The translations under genes were made by a program, and so were the position numbers. Positions 4,179 to 48,528 of a stretch of DNA of 64,000 bases are shown here, piece after piece (position 1 is the first letter of the stretch; each line of letters begins with the position of its first letter). The stretch lies in contig DATNBZ010000020.1 of assembly GCA_035607285.1 (NCBI GenBank), positions 4,505-68,504 of the forward strand, in the 5' to 3' direction. The stretch is from Blastocatellia bacterium. GTDB taxonomy: Bacteria; Acidobacteriota; Blastocatellia; UBA7656. Under the pieces are notes generated by a model. The model saw nothing but the letters and a program-made list of their open reading frames with translations. It did not search any database and had not been told where the DNA came from.

Positions 4179-4195
4179 AGATTTGAGGCATAGGT

Positions 4196-4212
4196 GAATG
4201 TAAGATTCACAA
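4196..4212. promoter_or_regulatory. Perfect palindrome GTGAATgtaagATTCAC in the AT-rich leader upstream of the KAP/NACHT operon (possible operator)
   Basis: 6-bp inverted arms with 5-bp spacer inside the 145-bp lower-GC intergenic region 4179-4323. Confidence 0.25.
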
Positions 4213-4323
4213 TCGACGTTTGAGAAGCAGATCCCTCTCAGCCATGTCCTTCTGTCGAAACTCTTCATAGCGGTTAACCTAGTTTTCAATTGATCTATCT
4301 TTGCCTCACTTTGCAAGCCGTGT

Positions 4324-5895
4324 ATGATTGTGAGCGCTGAAAGCGCGCGTCAAGTTGACCGAATGAGAGGGTCGATGATCTCGAACGATGAGCCAGTCTA
4401 TCTAGATGCCTTGGGTCACTACGAGTTGGCCAAGCAACTGGGCCATCGTGTGCTGAAGTGTCCCCCTCCATACGTTATCGGCGTATGTGGGTCATGGGGC
4501 TCCGGCAAAACAAGCTTCCTAAAAATGTTATGGGCGTATCTGGGGGGACCGGTTGAACTCGTTGGCCGGAAATTTGGAGGCTTGCGTGATGATGAGCGCG
4601 CGAAATGGTTCAATGAACCGCAGGACGACTTTAGTCCCCTGCTCAATAAGAGAAAGCTGGAGCTGATTTGGTTCAACCCCTGGCAGCATCAGTTCGAGAC
4701 AAGCCCCCTCGTGGCGCTGCTGAACGAAATACGCAAGCACTTTACAATGCCGCGGAAGGCATACGACGAAGCCGGGAGGCTCATTGACGTTGCAACTCAC
4801 GCTACCCTCAACGCTCTTGCAGATTTCGGAAAGGAACTCAAGATTCCGATCCCAGGCGCGAAAGGGATCATGGAAAGGGGCCGCGAATATGAAGGCGAGC
4901 ACTTTTCAACAGGACTGGCTTCGCAGCGTTTCCGCGATTTCTTTGAGGAGGCAATTCGTTCAGTCACCAAGAAAGGATTGCTGGTAATCTTCATTGACGA
5001 TCTCGACCGCTGCGAAGGTGACGTCGCTTATCATCTGCTTGAGGCACTAAAGCTTTATGTCAATGCGGATAACTGCATCTACGTTCTTGGGCTTGATCAG
5101 AACCACCTTGAGAGATCAATAGCGAAAGCATTGTCCGGGGAAGCAGAAAAGTGGCGTCATCGACCTCTCGCACGGGACTACCTCAGCAAGATATTTCAGA
5201 ACCTTTACCATCTACCGGTTCCGCGTCATACGTCACGGTACGTCGACGCCTTACTCGATGCAGACGACCCTGCCTTTAAGGCGCAACTTGGCCAGCTCTT
5301 TGGCCTAAATAATGCTGACTGGAAACTACTTGTAGAAGCGCTTGACGACAACTTGCCTCACAACCCTCGTAAGATTAAATCGTTCATTGGGTCGTGGAAA
5401 CTGTATCTTGATTCACTCATCAAGCCGGAAGGGCCCTCGGATAAGCTCGATTGGCGCCTGACATTGATACTGCATTATCTGGCGCAGTTTGAAGAGCCGC
5501 TCTTCCGAAAAGTTGAGGAGGCTCCCGCTTTCTACAGCGATTATATCATCCGATACTCCCGTGATGGCATCAATCGACACCCGTTGTTCGAGGGACTCGA
5601 GTTGCCTTACAGCACACCCTCGGCTGGATCAGAGGCTGACGAGAAGGGCGGACTCCCCTCGCCAGCGTCTGCTGCAGCGGCGGCCGATGAGTCTCAGGAT
5701 AACAAGAAGGATGAAAAACAAATCGAGGTTCAACCACGGATCTTTTGGATTAGTCGGTTGATTAACGGGCTTGCAAAAGAGACGAGATTTAAGCTCGATG
5801 ATGAAACCGTTCATCGCCATCTTCTGAGATCTGGTGGTAAGACACCCGAGCCGCCGCCCCCATTGCCTATTGTCCCAGGGGAGGCCACCGAATGA
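4324..5895 (+). CDS. KAP-family P-loop NTPase
   Basis: Walker A 'GVCGSWGSGKTS', Walker B 'LLVIFIDDLDRC', KAP signature 'NPRKIKSFI'; low-complexity acidic/Pro-rich C-terminus; start codon uncertain (M1, M14 or M18). Confidence 0.85.
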   Translation: MIVSAESARQVDRMRGSMISNDEPVYLDALGHYELAKQLGHRVLKCPPPYVIGVCGSWGSGKTSFLKMLWAYLGGPVELVGRKFGGLRDDERAKWFNEPQDDFSPLLNKRKLELIWFNPWQHQFETSPLVALLNEIRKHFTMPRKAYDEAGRLIDVATHATLNALADFGKELKIPIPGAKGIMERGREYEGEHFSTGLASQRFRDFFEEAIRSVTKKGLLVIFIDDLDRCEGDVAYHLLEALKLYVNADNCIYVLGLDQNHLERSIAKALSGEAEKWRHRPLARDYLSKIFQNLYHLPVPRHTSRYVDALLDADDPAFKAQLGQLFGLNNADWKLLVEALDDNLPHNPRKIKSFIGSWKLYLDSLIKPEGPSDKLDWRLTLILHYLAQFEEPLFRKVEEAPAFYSDYIIRYSRDGINRHPLFEGLELPYSTPSAGSEADEKGGLPSPASAAAAADESQDNKKDEKQIEVQPRIFWISRLINGLAKETRFKLDDETVHRHLLRSGGKTPEPPPPLPIVPGEATE

Positions 5896-8663
5896 CGGGT
5901 GTGATCAAGAAAGACCTCGAAGGCGATTACAAGTTATTGCTCTCATGGCGCTATAACAGCGTCGAGTTCCTTGGTCTACCTAGCCTGAAAGAGAATCGCC
6001 CGTTGACGCTCGAAGAGATATACATACCTCTGAGCTTTGCGTGGGAACAAGGTAGTGACAAGCGTGTCTACCTACCTGAAGCTCTAGAGACGAGCCGGCA
6101 ACTGGTCATACTAGGCGACCCAGGTTGCGGAAAGTCTACCCTGATTAAATTGGTTACCTACTCATTCGGAAGAACTGAACCTACACCACTCTCCCAGCGT
6201 TTTGGCCCGCTCGTGCCGGTGCCCATCATTCTGCGGGACTACCATGTTGGCTCATGGCAATCTAAAGAGGACATGCTGGACGATTTCATTGGCCAACTCG
6301 ACGAAGATATTCGTGATCGTGTCAGTGTGGGATGGCTATTGAGGGCATTACAAGAAGGCCGTGGCTTATTGCTCTTAGATGGCTTGGACGAAGTGGGAAG
6401 CAGTGAAGACCGCCTACATCTCAGAAACGACATCGTGCGCCCTTTACTTTCGATAATGCCCGAGAGTTATGCAATTCTCACTAGTCGGATAGTCGGCTAT
6501 GAAGAAGTGCCATACGGACATGACGAGGTTGGCATACTTCCACCCTTACTTCCTCGGTGCTACGTAGCGCCGTTCACTGATGAGGATATCGACCAGTTCA
6601 TCACACGCTGGTATGCGGCTCGCGAGCCTAACCCTGAGCGCAGGCGTACTGGGCTTCACTCGCTCGGCCAGGCCTTGCACCAGAATGACCGGATCAAGCG
6701 GCTGGCCACCAATCCTTCCCTGCTGACCCTGATGGTCTTGATCCATCGCGTCACGGCCCATCTACCGTCGGGCCGTGTGAAGCTCTACGACAAGATAGTC
6801 GAGGCCTATCTTGAGACCATCCAAACCTATCGGAAGCTCGGTCAATACCCAGCTTCGCTCGACCAGATGAAGCGCTGGCTTGCGAGGGTCGGTTGGGAGA
6901 TGCAGTCCAGCCGCGTTGGCGCTGGGGAAGGGGAACTAATGGTGCCACGCGATGACATCGTGGCATGGCTCACCGATGCCATCGATGTGGATCGCGTCGG
7001 CGCGGCGGCGGAAGCTGCCCAGTTCTTAGACTACGTGGCGCGCCGTAGTGGACTCTTGATTGAGCGCAAAAACGATGTGTTTGCATTCGTTCATCTGACT
7101 TTTCAAGAGTACTTTGCCGCGTTTCATCTGCGCGGCAAACTTGGACGCTTCGATGATTTGGCGAGCACGTCTGGCTTCCTAGTTGCGCAGGTTCACTGGC
7201 ACGAAACGCTTAGCCTTTTGTTTGAGATGCTGGCCGAATTCCCGGGAGCAGGGGACGATTTGTTGAATGAGATAGAGGAACGAACGAAAGGGTTTCCCGA
7301 TAAACGCGTCGGCGCGGCGGAGTTCGTCGCGGATTTATTATTGGACGACCAGAGCGGACTTGGTTTGCGTAGACAGACACAGGCGGCGGCCTACGCGCTA
7401 GGCGTAGCGACCGGCAGTTTCGATGAGGCAGTACTCGCGAGATTAAAACAACTCCCAGCAGACCGGTTCGAACAACTGGTCCGCAAATGGTTGGAGAAGG
7501 AACTCTGGCGTGCGAAACCGGAAAAACTGGGCCGCGATTTCTTTGTTGTTGGAGGTGATCTATTAGAGGACTGGTCACGCGTGTTGGGAGAATGGGTGAC
7601 TGCGCGCGGCGAGTTGCCATGGAGTGACTCGCAAATCGAAGACATCATTCTCATTGCCGGAGAGAGTCCCGAGGTGCACCGATGGGCGACGGAGTCGCTG
7701 CCTCTGAGCGGATGGCTGAAGGCTCGATCCTTGAGCTGGCATCATTACGGTTTGGCGAATCTGGCCGAGCTCAACTTGACTACATTGCTGGAAGCTAATG
7801 ATGAGTGCCCTCGGCATCAACTGCTAACTCAATTTGGTCTCGCTTCAGCTATCTCGGGCTCGGAGCTCATAAGGGTCTCGACGGCTTTGGCTTTCCATCA
7901 GAGGCCTGATCAGCCTGTAGTCCGGGCGTTGAGAGGAATTGAGGAGATCCTTCAGGATCGCGTTAAGCGCTATGCTCGGATGCTGGCTCTAGACTTGGCT
8001 ATGGGTCAGGCTTCTCCTCGGGATCGGGCACGAGTAGCGAGCCGAGGTCTGATTGTGGACCCGTATCTGGATGAACCTTTGGTTGGCCCTCTATTTCGTT
8101 CTTTGATCCTCTCTTCGCGTCTTCAACTGGCTTCAAATCTCGAATTGGCAATCTCATCATCAAAGCCGAAGCTGAGCGAAGAAAACAGAAAGATTGCCGC
8201 GCTCGCCGATGCAGAGTGTCTGTTCTTTTCACCTAAGACCTCACCCAAGCAATTCAATATCACAACGCGCAGTCTAAAAGAAATGACAACGGCCCAGGAT
8301 GAATGGACTCAACTGCTCGCCCTCTCCGCTTTGCTGATGCTCGGTGCAGGGACACCGAAAGCCTGCGGCAGCCGCAATGAGTTACTCGATAAGGCCATGA
8401 GGCAACCTCAAGCGTTCAGCTTTCCGCAAAAGGTGCGGCTGGAGACGGACACCCCCGCCTTCCACGAATCGCTTCCGAAGCTCATGCGTATGGTCTTCCT
8501 GCACGACCCCGACGATCCGTGGCTTTTGCCGGAGAAGCTTGATCGCTCGAATCCCGAGTCGCGTTTTTTCGTTTCTAGCCCACGCGAGTTCTATGCGCTC
8601 GCAGCCGAGGTTCTCGACCCTGAAGGCAAAACCGAACTGGCAGAATGGCGGAATAGTGATTGA
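5892..8663 (+). CDS. NACHT-domain STAND NTPase with about 480-aa alpha-helical C-terminal region
   Basis: Walker A 'ILGDPGCGKSTL', Walker B 'LLLLDGLDEV', sensor-1 'ILTSR', 'NPSLLTLM' motif; GGGAGG RBS 7 nt upstream; start overlaps the KAP stop by 4 nt (ATGA). Confidence 0.85.
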   Translation: MTGVIKKDLEGDYKLLLSWRYNSVEFLGLPSLKENRPLTLEEIYIPLSFAWEQGSDKRVYLPEALETSRQLVILGDPGCGKSTLIKLVTYSFGRTEPTPLSQRFGPLVPVPIILRDYHVGSWQSKEDMLDDFIGQLDEDIRDRVSVGWLLRALQEGRGLLLLDGLDEVGSSEDRLHLRNDIVRPLLSIMPESYAILTSRIVGYEEVPYGHDEVGILPPLLPRCYVAPFTDEDIDQFITRWYAAREPNPERRRTGLHSLGQALHQNDRIKRLATNPSLLTLMVLIHRVTAHLPSGRVKLYDKIVEAYLETIQTYRKLGQYPASLDQMKRWLARVGWEMQSSRVGAGEGELMVPRDDIVAWLTDAIDVDRVGAAAEAAQFLDYVARRSGLLIERKNDVFAFVHLTFQEYFAAFHLRGKLGRFDDLASTSGFLVAQVHWHETLSLLFEMLAEFPGAGDDLLNEIEERTKGFPDKRVGAAEFVADLLLDDQSGLGLRRQTQAAAYALGVATGSFDEAVLARLKQLPADRFEQLVRKWLEKELWRAKPEKLGRDFFVVGGDLLEDWSRVLGEWVTARGELPWSDSQIEDIILIAGESPEVHRWATESLPLSGWLKARSLSWHHYGLANLAELNLTTLLEANDECPRHQLLTQFGLASAISGSELIRVSTALAFHQRPDQPVVRALRGIEEILQDRVKRYARMLALDLAMGQASPRDRARVASRGLIVDPYLDEPLVGPLFRSLILSSRLQLASNLELAISSSKPKLSEENRKIAALADAECLFFSPKTSPKQFNITTRSLKEMTTAQDEWTQLLALSALLMLGAGTPKACGSRNELLDKAMRQPQAFSFPQKVRLETDTPAFHESLPKLMRMVFLHDPDDPWLLPEKLDRSNPESRFFVSSPREFYALAAEVLDPEGKTELAEWRNSD

Positions 8664-8710
8664 GCACCGAGGCTTGCAAAGACACCTTCAATAATCGCAC
8701 AAATGATGGA

Positions 8711-8846
8711 TTAATGGAGAGCATTCAAGACATTCGTTACAGCGCTCGCTCGCTGACTAAGACTCCGGGCTTCACGGCGGCTGCTGTTAGCGTGCTTTGC
8801 GCTCGGCATCGGAGCTAACACGGCTGTCTTCACCGTAGTCAAGCCG
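8711..8846 (+). pseudogene. 5' remnant (about 40 codons, frameshifted) of an ADOP permease gene
   Basis: Translates 'MESIQDIRYSARSLTKTPGFTAAAV', matching ADOP N-termini (compare 'METILQHIRYSVRSLIKTPAFTAVA' at 9511); frame breaks, then nucleotide similarity to 9511 continues to 'accgtagtcaa(g)ccgtgctg' and stops. Confidence 0.6.
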
Positions 8847-8986
8847 TGCTGCTCCAGGCGCCCCCGCAGTTGTTCTTCAGCGGTGATGATTGTGATTGCG
8901 ATTTCGTCAGCGGGAATGAGCACCAGTCGCTCGCGGATCTTTGGATTGCCCCATGGGTTCAGGCTGAGATGATCCGTATCCAACAC
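8847..8986 (-). pseudogene. Truncated PIN-domain (VapC-like) toxin gene, N-terminal about 45 codons only
   Basis: '(M)LDTDHLSLNPWGNPKIRERLVLIPADEIAITIITAEEQLRG' fits the VapC N-terminal pattern (hhLDTN..., ...ITxxEL.xG); the ORF then reads antisense through the ADOP fragment, so the 3' part of the toxin is missing. Confidence 0.5.
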
Positions 8987-8993
8987 GTACAAG

Positions 8994-9380
8994 TTACTGG
9001 TCCGATTCGCCAGTATTATTCTCCTGCCGATTGCGGGAAATCTCAGTCATAAAGTCGTCATAGGTGGGATCATCACGCAGACTGCCGTGAACCTCCAACC
9101 ACGGGTTTGCGGAGACAGGCGAGGGCGATTCGTCTATCTCTGGGAAGAGCGGCCTTTCACCTTGTGCCGCGCGGGTTTCATTCAGGGCGTGTTTCAAGTG
9201 CTCGAATGTCTCCCGCTGTTCACTCTCATCCTCTTCCAGAAAACGGTCAAGCACCGCCAGCGCGGCTGGGACATCGATTTTATGCAGCACGAAACCGGAA
9301 GTACGCGGACGATCGATAGCCAATTCATCCGCCGCTCGATGAGCGAGGCCGTCGTCTGACAATATACTCGGTTGATTCAT
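8994..9380 (-). CDS. Putative antitoxin-like small acidic protein upstream of the vapC remnant
   Basis: 128-aa ORF whose stop is immediately before the vapC start (classic antitoxin-toxin order); family not recognised. Confidence 0.45.
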   Translation of the reverse strand: MNQPSILSDDGLAHRAADELAIDRPRTSGFVLHKIDVPAALAVLDRFLEEDESEQRETFEHLKHALNETRAAQGERPLFPEIDESPSPVSANPWLEVHGSLRDDPTYDDFMTEISRNRQENNTGESDQ

Positions 9381-9510: not shown

Positions 9511-11982
9511 ATGGAGACTATCCTTCAACACATTCGATACAGCGTTCGGTCGCTGATAAAGACCCCAGCCTTCACGGCGGTTGCGATCGTCGTTCTTGCG
9601 CTTGCCATCGGCGCCAACACCGCGATCTTTACCGTAGTCAACGCCGTGCTGATTCGGGCGCTCCCTTATCCCAATTCGGATCGGCTCGTGATGCTCTGGG
9701 AAACAAATCCGCGGTTCCAGATCGGAATCGATACGCTGCCCGTTACGCCAGGGACTTTCATGGATTGGCGAGAACAGAGCAGCGTCTTCGAACATATCTC
9801 AGCGCTGGGAGCCGGGCGTTTGAATCTGTCGGGCTCGGGTGAGCCTGAACGAATCAGTGGCGCCACCGTCTCTGCAAATTTCTTTCGATTGATGGGTATT
9901 GAGCCGAAGCTCGGTCGGGCGTTTCAAGACGACGAAGAGAAGCCCGGCGCAACCAAGGTGGCTGTCATAAGCCATGCGCTTTGGCAGAGGCGCTTCGGTG
10001 GCGCGGAGGATATTGTTGGGAAACCGATGACGCTCGACGGCGAGAGCTACACTGTAATCGGCGTCGCACCGGAAGGATTCCAGTTTCCACGCGCACGCGA
10101 GCTTCCTTACTTCGTCGGCGTGTCGTCGGCAACAGAGCTATGGCGACCGATGATTCAGTCGGAAGATTTCATTAGTAAGAAACGCGCGAATCATCAGATG
10201 ACGGTCATAGCGAAACTCAAACCCGGCGTTACTCGCGAGCAAGCTCAAGCCGAGATGACTGCGATCGCCTCGCGGCTCGAGCAAGCCTACCCGGAGAACC
10301 AGGGAATCGGCGCGAAGGTCGTTCCGCTAAGCGAGCAAGTCGTCGGCAACTCCAGAATCGCGTTGCTTGTATTGATGGGCGCGGTTGGATTGGTTCTGTT
10401 GATCGCGTGTGCGAACGTCGCCAACCTGATGCTCACTCGAGCTTCGGGAAGAAGGAAAGAGATTGCTATTCGAATCGCGCTCGGCGCAAGTCGCCGGGAC
10501 GTAATACGTCAACTGATGAGCGAGGCCCTGCTCCTCTCGCTCGCAAGCGCAGTCGCCGGAACGCTGTTGAGTCTCTGGGGCGTCAAAGCGATGCTGGCGC
10601 TAACGGGCAAAAATCTTCCCCGGCTGAACGAAGTCACTGTCGACCCGACGGTTCTTGGATTCACCGTAGCGATCGCCTTGCTGACCAGTCTGTTCTTCGG
10701 ACTGACACCCGCGTTGCAAGCTTCAAAAATCAATCTCGTCCAGACGCTGAAGGACGGCTCTCGAGGACAGTCAGGCGGGCGAGGTGCGAATCGCGTTCGC
10801 GGCGCGCTGGTTGTTGCGGAAGTTGCTCTCTCGCTGGTGTTGCTGATCGGCGCCGCGTTGATGATCAAGAGTCTTGCGCAACTGCTCGAGGTCGATCCGG
10901 GCTTTAAGACCGATCGCGCGCTCACAATGAACATAGCGTTGCTCGGATCAAAGTACCCGAGCGCGAATCAGCAAATCGGTTTCTTCGACGAGGTTCGCCG
11001 TCGCGTCGAGGTTTTGCCCGGCATCGAGTCTGTAGGGTTGATCTCATCGGCGCCTCTGAGCGGAGGAGTCTACGCGGGAGGCTTCTCGATCGAGGGCCGT
11101 GGGCCGAGGTCGGCGAATGAAGACCTCTCGGCCGACAGACGAATGATCAGCCCCGAGTATTTCAACGCTCTTCAGATTGCGCTCATCAAGGGCCGCTACT
11201 TCACCGAACGCGATAATCAAGCGTCGACCGGGGTCGCGATTGTGAGCGATTCGTGGGCGCGACGGTTTGTGCCGGACGACGATCCGATTGGCAAGCGCAT
11301 CAAGCTTGGCGGCCGCGACTCGACTCGACCGTGGCTTTCGATTGTTGGAATAGCCGGAGACGTTCGAGACACCGCGCTCGAATCGGATGCGCGGCCTTGC
11401 GTGTATTTGCCTTATTCGCAGTTCCCGGCTTCGAGTATGTCTCTTGTTGTGCGCACCGCGGTCGATTCCAGAGCCGAGTCAAAAACCTTGGTGCCCGCGA
11501 TTCGAAGCGAGGTGTGGGCGATCGATAAGGACCAGCCGGTAACGGACGTAAAGACGATGGACGAATACGTCTCGGATTCGGTTTCACCGCGTCGCGCGAA
11601 CGCGCTGCTGCTGGCCGTGTTCGCGGCGTTGGCGCTTGCGCTTGCCTCGATAGGAGTCTACGGAGTGATGGCTTATTCGGTGGCGCAGCGAGTTCGCGAA
11701 ATCGGTATCCGGATGGCGCTTGGCGCGCAGAGGTCGGATGTTGTCAGGCTGATCGTCGGAAGCGCTATGACTCTCGTGTTCGCGGGTGTGGGGATCGGGC
11801 TCGCGAGCGCGCTGGCGTTGAGCCGCGTGTTATCGAGCTTACTTTATGGAGTGAGCGCGACCGATCCAATGACTTTTGCTTTCGTTTCTGTTTTGCTTGT
11901 GTGCCTGGCATGGTTCGCAAGTTACATCCCGGCCCGCAGGGCTACAAAGGTTGATCCGATGATTGCCTTGCGACACGAATGA
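9511..11982 (+). CDS. ADOP/MacB-like duplicated FtsX ABC transporter permease (full length)
   Basis: 'METILQHIRYSVRSLIKTPAFT...' to 'VDPMIALRHE'; start taken at the conserved MET codon 9511 rather than the ORF-track start 9412. Confidence 0.9.
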   Translation: METILQHIRYSVRSLIKTPAFTAVAIVVLALAIGANTAIFTVVNAVLIRALPYPNSDRLVMLWETNPRFQIGIDTLPVTPGTFMDWREQSSVFEHISALGAGRLNLSGSGEPERISGATVSANFFRLMGIEPKLGRAFQDDEEKPGATKVAVISHALWQRRFGGAEDIVGKPMTLDGESYTVIGVAPEGFQFPRARELPYFVGVSSATELWRPMIQSEDFISKKRANHQMTVIAKLKPGVTREQAQAEMTAIASRLEQAYPENQGIGAKVVPLSEQVVGNSRIALLVLMGAVGLVLLIACANVANLMLTRASGRRKEIAIRIALGASRRDVIRQLMSEALLLSLASAVAGTLLSLWGVKAMLALTGKNLPRLNEVTVDPTVLGFTVAIALLTSLFFGLTPALQASKINLVQTLKDGSRGQSGGRGANRVRGALVVAEVALSLVLLIGAALMIKSLAQLLEVDPGFKTDRALTMNIALLGSKYPSANQQIGFFDEVRRRVEVLPGIESVGLISSAPLSGGVYAGGFSIEGRGPRSANEDLSADRRMISPEYFNALQIALIKGRYFTERDNQASTGVAIVSDSWARRFVPDDDPIGKRIKLGGRDSTRPWLSIVGIAGDVRDTALESDARPCVYLPYSQFPASSMSLVVRTAVDSRAESKTLVPAIRSEVWAIDKDQPVTDVKTMDEYVSDSVSPRRANALLLAVFAALALALASIGVYGVMAYSVAQRVREIGIRMALGAQRSDVVRLIVGSAMTLVFAGVGIGLASALALSRVLSSLLYGVSATDPMTFAFVSVLLVCLAWFASYIPARRATKVDPMIALRHE

Positions 11983-13672: not shown

Positions 13673-14245
13673 GTGGAAACCCTGCCGAAACTAACAAGCG
13701 CAGACCTGGGACTCTTGCCGGAGGACGGCAAACTGTACGAATTGATCGATGGAGAACTCTACGTGTCTCGACAACCGTCCTGGGATCATCAGTATTCGTG
13801 TGTTCGCTTGGCCAGATTTCTAGATGAATGGAATGAGCAGGCTGACCTCGGAGTTGTTAACGCCGCGCCCGGTGTGATCTTTGCCGAAGATGATGATGTC
13901 GCTCCCGACCTGGTTTGGATAAGTCACGGCAAGCTAAGCACTGCGCTTGGTGAAGACCGAAAACTCCACTCCGCTCCTGAGTTGGTCATTGAAGTGCTAT
14001 CGCCCGGCTTCGCCAACCAGCAGCGTGATCGGCAGGCAAAACTGAAACTCTACAGCCGGCGCGGAGTGGTGGAATACTGGATCGTGAACGGACTAGAACA
14101 TGAAGTGGAGGTCTATCGCCACGACGGGATCAGCTTACGCTTTTGCGTGACACTTGGTGGTGAAGATCTCCTGGAGTCGCCCTTGTTGCCAGGATTCTCC
14201 TGCCGCGTGAGCAAGCTCTTCTTCGAGGGTTCACCGGGGGCCTAA
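13673..14245 (+). CDS. Uma2-family (DUF820) putative endonuclease
   Basis: 'ELVIEVLSPGFANQQRDRQAKLKLYSRRGVVEYWIVN' PD-(D/E)xK-like Uma2 signature; GTG start. Confidence 0.8.
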   Translation: METLPKLTSADLGLLPEDGKLYELIDGELYVSRQPSWDHQYSCVRLARFLDEWNEQADLGVVNAAPGVIFAEDDDVAPDLVWISHGKLSTALGEDRKLHSAPELVIEVLSPGFANQQRDRQAKLKLYSRRGVVEYWIVNGLEHEVEVYRHDGISLRFCVTLGGEDLLESPLLPGFSCRVSKLFFEGSPGA

Positions 14246-48003: not shown

Positions 48004-48528
48004 TTGCAATGTGCAGAAAGAAGCGGTCCGATCACGAATAAAGAACTAGTCAACGCTATCTGTAAACAATCAAGACCTCTGATTAGATCAAAGAGGGACG
48101 TTGCCCTTCGGTCCCTGGAAAGGGTCATTCTTGTGAAGAATCTGGATAAGGTGATGGTGGGGGCGATGGGTTGCGCTCAATGGATTCGTGCAGATTTGGA
48201 ACTACTACTTCGCGCCGCATTTTGGCTAACTCTTTCAGAAGGCGCGTTACGCGCCCGAATCGTGCTGGATCAAAAGGATTTGATGCAGAAGTTTCAGAAG
48301 CGTCTGGGCTTGAGTGATGGTGAAATAGAATCTCTCTTGAAGCGATCAGACGACTTGCTGAAGAGTTTGCCTCCTGTAAAGAAACAAATTGAGAATAACG
48401 CTCAGATACTCGAGCACGACATCTGGCATCAGCCGAAACTCGCGAAACTGTATGGCCATTTCCACGGTTCGCTCTCAAAGTTGTCGCACCCAGATCCGTT
48501 TTATCTTCTTTCCGGAACTGCTCTCTAG
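48004..48528 (+). CDS. Hypothetical protein in a lower-GC segment
   Basis: ORF only; AT-richer codon usage than neighbours. Confidence 0.35.
   Translation: MQCAERSGPITNKELVNAICKQSRPLIRSKRDVALRSLERVILVKNLDKVMVGAMGCAQWIRADLELLLRAAFWLTLSEGALRARIVLDQKDLMQKFQKRLGLSDGEIESLLKRSDDLLKSLPPVKKQIENNAQILEHDIWHQPKLAKLYGHFHGSLSKLSHPDPFYLLSGTAL

Follow-up and report, generated by a model that had tools for sequence, protein, structure and literature searches.

A conserved KAP–NACHT gene pair in a Blastocatellia bacterium as a possible two-gene NLR conflict module

Two P-loop NTPases, one of the KAP family and one of the NACHT (NLR-type STAND) family, are encoded by overlapping genes in the 64,000-nucleotide stretch of Blastocatellia DNA analysed here (the window). 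A NACHT gene directly follows a KAP gene of this clade, on the same strand, at 42 loci in at least eight phyla, a count that takes in every KAP of the clade with downstream DNA available. We propose that the pair may be a self-contained, horizontally mobile two-gene NLR (STAND) conflict module, most probably a sensor of phages or mobile elements, a reading to which we give slightly less than even weight. Bacterial NLR-like proteins are usually seen as single-chain effector–switch–sensor machines, and KAP NTPases, which range from bacteria to humans, are one of the most poorly understood P-loop groups.

The phyla represented are Acidobacteriota, Pseudomonadota (alpha, beta and gamma), Nitrospirota, Spirochaetota, Bacteroidota, Armatimonadota, Verrucomicrobiota and Campylobacterota. 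Across the 42 loci, the median gap between the two genes is 3 nt and 33 gaps are no longer than 30 nt; the genes overlap at 16 loci, at nine of them by the same 4 nt as here. The identity matrices of the KAP and NACHT proteins are correlated (r = 0.89, Mantel p = 0.001), even for pairs with KAP identity below 50% (r = 0.71), and by nearest neighbour the paired KAPs (39/39) segregate from the unpaired ones (36/36). This cross-phylum pairing, tight or overlapping spacing and co-divergence support the view that the two genes work as a unit. When 205 ORFs flanking 35 loci were clustered, no third gene conserved with the pair emerged, only lineage-specific synteny. Cultured carriers of the pair are Pseudomonas sputi BML-PP014, Pseudoduganella sp. 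LjRoot289 and Alteromonas sp. a30.

Both ORFs named in a preliminary description of this DNA (4324-5895 and 5892-8663, forward strand) are present, and the ATGA overlap that it reported is real: the ATG of the NACHT gene lies on the TGA of the KAP gene, with a Shine–Dalgarno sequence, GGGGAGG, just 5' of the ATG. The KAP start that it placed at 4324 was not borne out. Since all KAP homologues start at the position of M18 (MISNDEP...) and a promoter-like site overlaps the 4324 ATG, the coding sequence most likely begins at 4375, a start served by the Shine–Dalgarno sequence GAGAGGG (Table 1). The promoter-like site, whose TTGCCT and TATGAT elements recur with the same spacing in the leader of homologue L001 (67% identical), is a candidate operon promoter.

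The leader has a GC content of 43%. A palindrome described there as perfect, at 4196-4212, lies 2 nt away at 4194-4210 (GTGAAT-GTAAG-ATTCAC, with 6-bp arms) and is imperfect, because only seven of its eight symmetric positions pair. By our arithmetic, chance alone would give about 0.2 repeats of this kind in a leader of 145 nt, and the repeat was not found in homologous leaders. Being imperfect, displaced by 2 nt and not conserved, it was rejected as a regulatory element.

The two genes are modestly atypical in composition. Their GC3 values are 0.563 and 0.588 vs 0.662 ± 0.046 in the remaining 38 long ORFs (z of about -2.2 and -1.6), ranking second and fourth lowest among 40 ORFs. As a mark of the suggested compositional island, the shift is a weak signal.

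Table 1. Coordinates of the gene pair, its domains and motifs, and the adjoining fragment patch in the window.
Feature	Position	Strand	Basis or remark
Promoter-like site, TTGCCT-16 nt-TATGAT (candidate)	4301..4328	+	consensus scan; overlaps 4324 ATG
KAP-family P-loop NTPase gene, 506 aa, soluble, RdrA-like fold	4375..5895	+	longest ORF from 4324
KAP Walker A, GSWGSGKT	4489..4512	+	invariant across 91 homologues
KAP helical insertion, from WFNPWQHQFE strand to Walker B	4699..4989	+	close-family identity, model
KAP Walker B, FIDDLDRCE	4990..5016	+	D-D-L-D-R-C-E invariant across 91 homologues
ATGA stop/start overlap of KAP and NACHT genes	5892..5895	+	sequence; tight spacing common in 42 paired loci
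NACHT (NLR-type STAND) NTPase gene, 923 aa	5892..8663	+	Pfam, AlphaFold model
NACHT module, residues 66-450 (nucleotide-binding domain, helical domain, winged helix)	6087..7241	+	
NACHT Walker A	6114-6140	+	within NACHT module
NACHT Walker B	6369-6392	+	within NACHT module
NACHT winged-helix His401, FVHLTFQEYF	7086-7115	+	within NACHT module
C-terminal all-alpha HEAT/ARM-like solenoid, residues 451-923	7242..8660	+	high-confidence model, Foldseek
Downstream insertion edge, patch of gene fragments, outside the system	8714..9380	.	repeats, translations
ADOP permease gene 5' remnant	8714-8865	+	within fragment patch
PIN/VapC-like toxin, N-terminal fragment	8866-8992	-	translation
128-aa ORF, may be antitoxin of PIN/VapC-like fragment	8994-9380	-	translation

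The upstream protein scores 97.4 bits with Pfam KAP_NTPase (PF07693; cut-off 20) over profile positions 15-285 of 293, and the GSWGSGKT, FIDDLDRCE and NPRKIK motifs by which it had been recognised are all found. Structure comparison places its fold nearest to RdrA. A helical insertion precedes Walker B; transmembrane helices occupy this site in many KAPs, and in RdrA the partner-binding 'crown' is found there. Identity in the insertion is about 64% within the close family, and residues 127-136 and 157-182 are modelled with low confidence. The membrane association expected of a KAP protein was rejected: the maximum 19-residue Kyte–Doolittle hydropathy is 0.97, hence the protein has no hydrophobic segment that could span the membrane. 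No transmembrane segments are found in either protein, and the helices of the insertion are soluble.

The downstream protein scores 39.5 bits with Pfam NACHT (PF05729; cut-off 26.7) over profile positions 1-165 of 167. It contains each of the motifs claimed for it, namely GDPGCGKST, LLLDGLDE, the sensor-1 TSR (residues 197-199) and NPSLL. Its AlphaFold model (pLDDT 90.6) finds ADP-bound NOD2 as the best PDB match (5irm, E 2e-9). G75, P77, G78, G80, K81, D163, G164, D166 and E167 are invariant in 75 homologues, as are T197, the sensor-1 R199, H401 and F404-F408. PDB searches with the sequences of the two proteins gave no significant match.

The NTPase and C-terminal parts of the NACHT protein have diverged to different extents. 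Within the close family the NACHT module is 58-63% identical, while residues 451-800 are 25-35% identical vs about 60% in the NTPase part. The C-terminal solenoid resembles SF3B1, karyopherin-beta2 and designed armadillo proteins in Foldseek. It is restricted to this family, with 49 cluster representatives among 1.84 billion proteins searched and no other context found among them. Depending on lineage, the paired NACHT proteins end in LRR, TPR or solenoid repeats, and true NACHT-LRR proteins are included. We regard the solenoid as a putative ligand sensor.

The NACHT protein has only about 65 residues ahead of Walker A, in keeping with the reported lack of an N-terminal effector. The N-terminal extension has a median length of 16 aa in 46 paired NACHT homologues, vs 178 aa in unpaired relatives, whose N-termini carry Peptidase_C14, DUF4062, Mrr_cat, Metallophos or NNH2 domains. 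Neither member of the pair has a nuclease, protease or TIR domain recognisable by Pfam, PADLOC or NCBIfam, as had been noted, and Pfam detects neither a DNA-binding domain nor any other domain for regulatory output in the pair.

The relatives of the two proteins suggest a defence role by analogy, and from the features described above we infer a physical interaction, a direction of signalling and a kind of output. The NACHT protein would serve as both receptor and switch: the rapidly diverging solenoid at its C-terminus, replaced by LRR or TPR repeats in other lineages, would bind an invader-derived ligand, which would free the ADP-locked NACHT module for oligomerisation. The N-terminal position, where sister NACHT clades carry their output as a caspase, an Mrr nuclease, DUF4062 or a phosphoesterase, is empty here, and the output or partner would be the soluble RdrA-like KAP ATPase co-translated from the gene directly upstream. 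This ATPase probably acts as a ring, and its conserved helical insertion, which corresponds to the RdrA crown, is by analogy a putative NACHT-docking surface that may bind the oligomerised NACHT protein. The concluding step, toxic or protective, would be the NTPase or remodelling activity of KAP, for example NTP depletion, a speculative step given that neither protein has a recognisable effector. That an effector-less sensor NLR signals through a KAP ring ATPase dedicated to it and co-evolving with it, with KAP activity as the immune output, is a tentative proposal that we consider possible though rather doubtful; it would make the pair a hitherto unrecognised kind of bacterial NLR immune system with two different oligomerising NTPases.

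The same parts could be wired in the opposite direction, with the KAP ring as sensor or regulator and the NACHT protein as amplifier or executor, or with KAP, as a guard or antitoxin-like partner, keeping the NACHT protein inactive until infection. In RADAR the proposed sensor is the C-terminal lobe of RdrA (PMC9994260), and KAP and STAND NTPases can each fill the central 'switch' position of other conflict systems (PMC8195603). The KAP gene, moreover, is upstream and translationally coupled, the usual place of a regulator or antitoxin. Such a polarity is nonetheless unlikely: the variable sensor-type repeats (LRR, TPR, HEAT) are on the NACHT protein and not on KAP, KAP is the more uniformly conserved of the two, and the NACHT protein lacks an effector domain that could make it the executor.

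Outside the pair, the setting is not that of a defence locus. The genes flanking it are ADOP duplicated permeases, as previously identified (TIGR03434, 990 and 1013 bits); a functional link with them was rejected because unrelated genes flank the homologous pairs. The other neighbours in the window (a monooxygenase, a response regulator and similar) are likewise non-defence genes. A survey of homologues did not bear out the idea of a defence-island context, as neighbours are mostly housekeeping genes: the 111 immediate neighbours at 35 loci, tallied as raw, uncorrected counts of PADLOC and Pfam matches, include few PADLOC matches (mad3, mad6, mad8, HNH and a PD-T4-6 kinase). Three long homologue contigs also show no clear enrichment in defence genes. 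By family patterns no relatives were found in IMG/VR, and there was one weak phage match. Plasmids gave eight weak matches, of which the sole pair-like one is a degraded Magnetococcus copy.

Several observations show signs that the pair is accessory: its low GC3, rearrangement scars, adjacent toxin-antitoxin or IS genes and decayed copies. The fragment patch downstream contains direct repeats, D1, D2 and D4, that share 78-83% identity with the 5' end of the ADOP gene that follows. Toxin-antitoxin or IS genes adjoin some homologous pairs, the neighbours vary between loci, and some copies are broken by IS elements or frameshifts.

Regulators are common among bacterial STAND proteins, and the pair might consist of NTPase switches for an endogenous process such as development, a stress response or an envelope function. 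Mostly housekeeping neighbours, the missing defence-island signal and the absence from viral contigs are in line with such a role. We consider it quite improbable, since the pair has neither a regulatory output domain nor conserved neighbouring target genes, is scattered patchily over eight phyla in differing insertion contexts, and decays by IS insertion and frameshift. The sensor domain also diverges fast, and the nearest NACHT relatives carry conflict-type caspase, nuclease or DUF4062 effectors.

A selfish addiction cassette resembling a toxin-antitoxin system, kept without any sensing because loss of one partner unleashes toxicity, would also be a mobile unit of two overlapping genes, and toxin-antitoxin genes often adjoin the pair. 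This origin is very improbable for proteins so large (506 and 923 aa) with intact, conserved NTPase switches and no known toxin fold in either; the exchange of repeat domains between LRR, TPR and HEAT types points instead to ligand recognition. Single-gene KAP and NACHT defence proteins do exist, yet it is scarcely credible that a PDC-S20-like KAP and a bNACHT-like protein merely lie side by side as independent systems, considering their co-divergence (r = 0.89), their overlap or near-zero spacing at most of the 42 loci, the clade-specific pairing and a NACHT protein without the effector of its stand-alone relatives.

If the proposed conflict module with a KAP output is correct, signalling by bacterial NLRs can be divided between two NTPases. 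The pair would then be a prokaryotic sensor–helper pair with a new output mechanism for NLR-type receptors, and KAP proteins would acquire a definite function as partners of NLRs. Output by an effector-less NLR could be studied in a tractable model, and soluble KAP ATPases would gain a functional handle. As cultured carriers exist, the hypothesis is directly testable.

No description of a KAP + NACHT system was found in PADLOC v2, NCBIfam r20 or the searchable literature, which agrees with the preliminary description, and neither protein reaches membership of a named family in these two collections. There is a parallel in organisation with NAIP–NLRC4 and the plant sensor–helper NLR pairs, in which two oligomerising NTPase switches, a variable sensor and a conserved partner, act together. 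The parallel is an analogy only, with no homology implied, as the second NTPase here is a KAP and not a STAND/NLR protein.

With QatA, PifA, PDC-S20 and the Enterococcus fusion proteins, the KAP protein shares the KAP P-loop fold and Walker A and B motifs; unlike them it lacks transmembrane helices as well as a fused effector region, and its partner is a NACHT protein. Its HMM scores indicate family-level likeness: 110 bits (5e-32) for PDC-S20, the best match, which covers profile positions 64-360 of 464, 68 for PifA and 66-78 for QatA. Eight other paired KAPs score 93-127 bits against PDC-S20. The NCBIfam QatA score of 78 bits is far below the cut-off of 600, so the protein is not assigned to QatABCD, and no QatB, QatC or QatD genes lie near the pair. 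In Enterococcus, effector-fused KAP proteins protect against phage, and the KAP defence proteins tested need Walker B (bioRxiv 10.1101/2025.10.07.681051).

With RADAR the likeness is structural alone: the fold of the KAP protein is nearest to that of RdrA, and its sequence gives no match to the PADLOC RdrA models. RdrA has about 800-900 aa and a large C-terminal lobe, whereas the KAP protein has about 500 aa and no such lobe. The crown of RdrA makes nearly all contacts with RdrB (PMC9994260). RdrB is an adenosine deaminase, while the partner here is a NACHT NTPase, and no RdrB-like deaminase occurs in the window flanks or at 35 homologous loci.

The NACHT protein has no match in PADLOC, and its NCBIfam score for EruA is 28 bits against a cut-off of 1000. 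It resembles bNACHT and Avs proteins, among which single-gene NACHT defence proteins are established (Kibby et al. preprint), in its central NACHT module, where every catalytic and autoinhibitory residue is kept and the fold is NOD2-like, and in its C-terminal repeat sensor of HEAT, LRR or TPR type. The tripartite effector–NTPase–sensor arrangement of those proteins is seen in its nearest unpaired relatives and not in the protein itself, which has, instead of an effector, an obligatory co-evolving KAP gene upstream.

Two ORFs lie on the same strand of the window (4324-5895 and 5892-8663, +), and the motifs quoted for them in the preliminary description are all found in their translations. The first matches Pfam KAP_NTPase with 97.4 bits and the second Pfam NACHT with 39.5 bits (gathering score 26.7), in agreement with the proposed assignments. 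The TGA of the KAP gene and the ATG of the NACHT gene overlap as ATGA, a GGGGAGG Shine-Dalgarno sequence is located upstream of this ATG, and ADOP duplicated permeases (TIGR03434) are present on both sides of the pair. The KAP ORF stands, but its start is probably not at 4324: all homologues start at the position of Met18. A promoter-like sequence (TTGCCT-16-TATGAT, 4301-4328) overlaps the 4324 ATG and is kept upstream of a homologue with 67% identity, again in the leader. The KAP coding region is most likely 4375-5895. In P0121, a JGI gene call whose protein is identical to the KAP of the window, the start is placed at Met68 (456 aa) and Walker A is lost, probably a start-site annotation error. 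The leader does contain the reported repeat, which is neither perfect nor at 4196-4212: it spans 4194-4210, with 6-bp arms and a 5-nt centre. We rejected it as a regulatory element; such a repeat is near chance expectation and is absent from homologous leaders. GC3 is low in the two genes, as suggested (0.563 and 0.588 vs 0.662 ± 0.046 in 38 other long ORFs), but the deviation of only ~2 SD is not marked. The lowest GC3 of the window, 0.50, belongs to the ORF at 48004-48528 (+), which may be foreign as well.

Searches of 5.8 billion proteins returned hundreds of homologues each for KAP and NACHT; by our own count, at least 40 of the KAP matches listed have a longest contig of the same size as that of a NACHT match. 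HMMs built from both families were run on the ORFs of 80 genomic loci in which KAP aligned and of 80 metagenomic loci in which NACHT aligned. Every KAP of the clade with downstream DNA is followed by a same-strand NACHT gene, for a total of 42 pairs. The carriers belong to Acidobacteriota (Blastocatellia, Holophagae, Thermoanaerobaculia), alpha-, beta- and gamma-Pseudomonadota, Nitrospirota, Spirochaetota, Bacteroidota, Armatimonadota, Verrucomicrobiota and Campylobacterota, and include the cultured Pseudomonas sputi, Pseudoduganella, Cognatilysobacter and Alteromonas. Gaps between the two genes have a median of 3 nt and are ≤30 nt in 33/42 pairs; the genes overlap in 16 of the 42, nine times by the identical 4 nt. 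KAP and NACHT identity matrices correlate with r=0.89 (Mantel p=0.001), and with r=0.71 among distant pairs only. In a nearest-neighbour test, paired (39/39) and unpaired (36/36) KAPs segregate fully where DNA is available. Clustering of 205 flanking ORFs revealed no conserved third gene. Conserved pairing, co-divergence and the lack of a third gene therefore define a unit of two genes, inherited and moved together. An Acidobacteria-type pair is also found in L003 and L004, MAG contigs labelled 'uncultured Heliomicrobium sp.' (a Firmicute genus), reflecting either horizontal transfer or a doubtful taxonomic label; their KAPs share 56-58% identity with that of the window, and between the KAPs of L004 and the metagenome locus L081 identity reaches 93%.

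The neighbours of the pair differ by lineage and are mostly housekeeping genes, with toxin-antitoxin genes or IS elements often close by. The expected defence-island setting was not found: PADLOC matches are few among 111 neighbours, the window's own neighbours are non-defence genes, and the pair resides outside classical defence islands. A search of IMG/VR with patterns of the family found no viral copies. In the window, the NACHT stop is followed within 750 nt by three gene fragments, which we read as a rearrangement scar; the 8866-9380 interval has the appearance of a toxin-antitoxin module that decayed where the insertion ends.

Gene fragments downstream of the NACHT gene
Feature	Position	Strand	Remarks
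5' remnant of ADOP permease gene (MESIQDIRYSARSLTKTPGFTAAAV...)	8714-8865, ~150 nt	+	Stop-broken; 78-83% DNA identity to 5' end of next ADOP gene (9524-9665)
PIN/VapC-like toxin N-terminal fragment, ~42 aa	within 8866-9380	-	LYVLDTDHLSL...ITAEEQLRG; cut at ADOP remnant
Possible antitoxin, 128-aa acidic ORF	8994-9380	-	Precedes PIN/VapC-like fragment; no Pfam match

The next ADOP gene probably starts at ATG 9511 (METILQHIRYS) and not at TTG 9412. A Uma2-family putative restriction-endonuclease-like gene is located 5 kb downstream of the pair (13673-14245, +).

Decay is also observed elsewhere. On the Candidatus Magnetococcus massalia plasmid MAGMO_p1 (L162, 6989-12507), the pair is degraded, with an IS4 transposase interrupting the KAP gene and an IS1380 transposase truncating the NACHT gene, and in L015 (Cognatilysobacter), L074 (Spirochaetaceae) and L086/L087 frameshifts have split KAP. 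Varied neighbours, nearby toxin-antitoxin and IS genes and decaying copies are the behaviour of a mobile accessory cassette.

The NACHT protein was described as having no N-terminal effector, and this is general: the extension has a median of 16 aa in KAP-linked NACHTs (n=46), against 178 aa in their nearest unlinked relatives (n=47). In the latter, the extension is a Peptidase_C14 caspase, DUF4062, Mrr_cat nuclease, metallophosphoesterase or NNH2 domain, and bacterial conflict systems usually have such domains as their output. Thus, in operon terms, the KAP gene takes the effector's place. The closest KAP-less relatives, with caspase, DUF4062, Mrr_cat or metallophosphoesterase domains at the N-terminus, are found in L083, L084, L088, L103 and L130; some contigs carry tandem NACHT genes (three in L149, two in L153).

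The AlphaFold model of NACHT is confident (pLDDT 90.6). Residues 66-450 form the NACHT module, with ADP-bound NOD2 as the top PDB match (E 2e-9), and residues 451-923 are modelled as an all-alpha solenoid similar to HEAT/ARM proteins. Across 75 homologues there is no variation in Walker A, Walker B (DGLDE), the sensor-1 Arg199 or the His401 of the winged helix (FVHLTFQEYF). Within the close family, identity is 58-63% in the NTPase part vs 25-35% over residues 451-800, and among 1.84 billion proteins the C-terminal domain is confined to its own family (49 cluster representatives). LRRs take its place in distant pairs (Pseudomonas sputi, Pseudoduganella, Methylococcaceae, Panacagrimonas), and TPRs in P0081, a NACHT whose contig equals in size that of the KAP match P0223. 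C-terminal LRRs are present on many KAP-linked NACHTs of Proteobacteria and Abditibacteriaceae (L007, L009, L010, L012, L018, L039). Variable, swappable repeats on a conserved NACHT switch are a hallmark of a ligand sensor.

The paired KAP is soluble, contrary to the suggested membrane association, and differs from many KAPs in having no hydrophobic segment. Its Walker A and B motifs are invariant among homologues. RdrA, the ATPase of RADAR, is a heptameric ring that touches its effector partner RdrB almost entirely through the 'crown', a helical insertion located between Walker A and B (PMC9994260). With 64% identity, the equivalent KAP insertion (residues ~111-185) ranks among the most conserved regions of KAP, and it has low confidence in the structure model; conserved yet low-confidence, it would fit a surface that becomes ordered only on a partner.

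An NLR-type conflict system with a probable anti-phage role is the best-supported reading of the pair. Sensing and switching would fall to the NACHT-repeat protein, with the putatively RdrA-like KAP ATPase as its obligatory partner and, most likely, the output. The main rival keeps the same complex with reversed polarity, KAP being the sensor or guard. A signalling pair outside defence is less likely, and an addiction cassette unlikely. Two independent systems lying side by side are effectively excluded by co-divergence, gene spacing and effector loss.

In line with the preliminary description, both proteins fall below membership of a named system in PADLOC v2 and NCBIfam r20. Full-text literature searches of partial coverage returned no KAP+NACHT system, and an earlier mention is possible. 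In the main bNACHT survey, bNACHT genes are rarely in operons, and such operons are poorly conserved. Aravind's group noted systems in which a KAP takes the place of the STAND NTPase, but made no mention of KAP-STAND pairing (PMC8195603), and fused KAP-effector proteins were recently shown to be anti-phage (bioRxiv 10.1101/2025.10.07.681051). The proposed NLR/STAND conflict system of bacteria, in which the split-off partner is a KAP, comes from computation alone. Its KAP resembles the PADLOC models PDC-S20, PifA and QatA in sequence at family level only, and the KAP-linked bacterial NACHTs with LRRs have the same NACHT-LRR architecture as animal NLRs.
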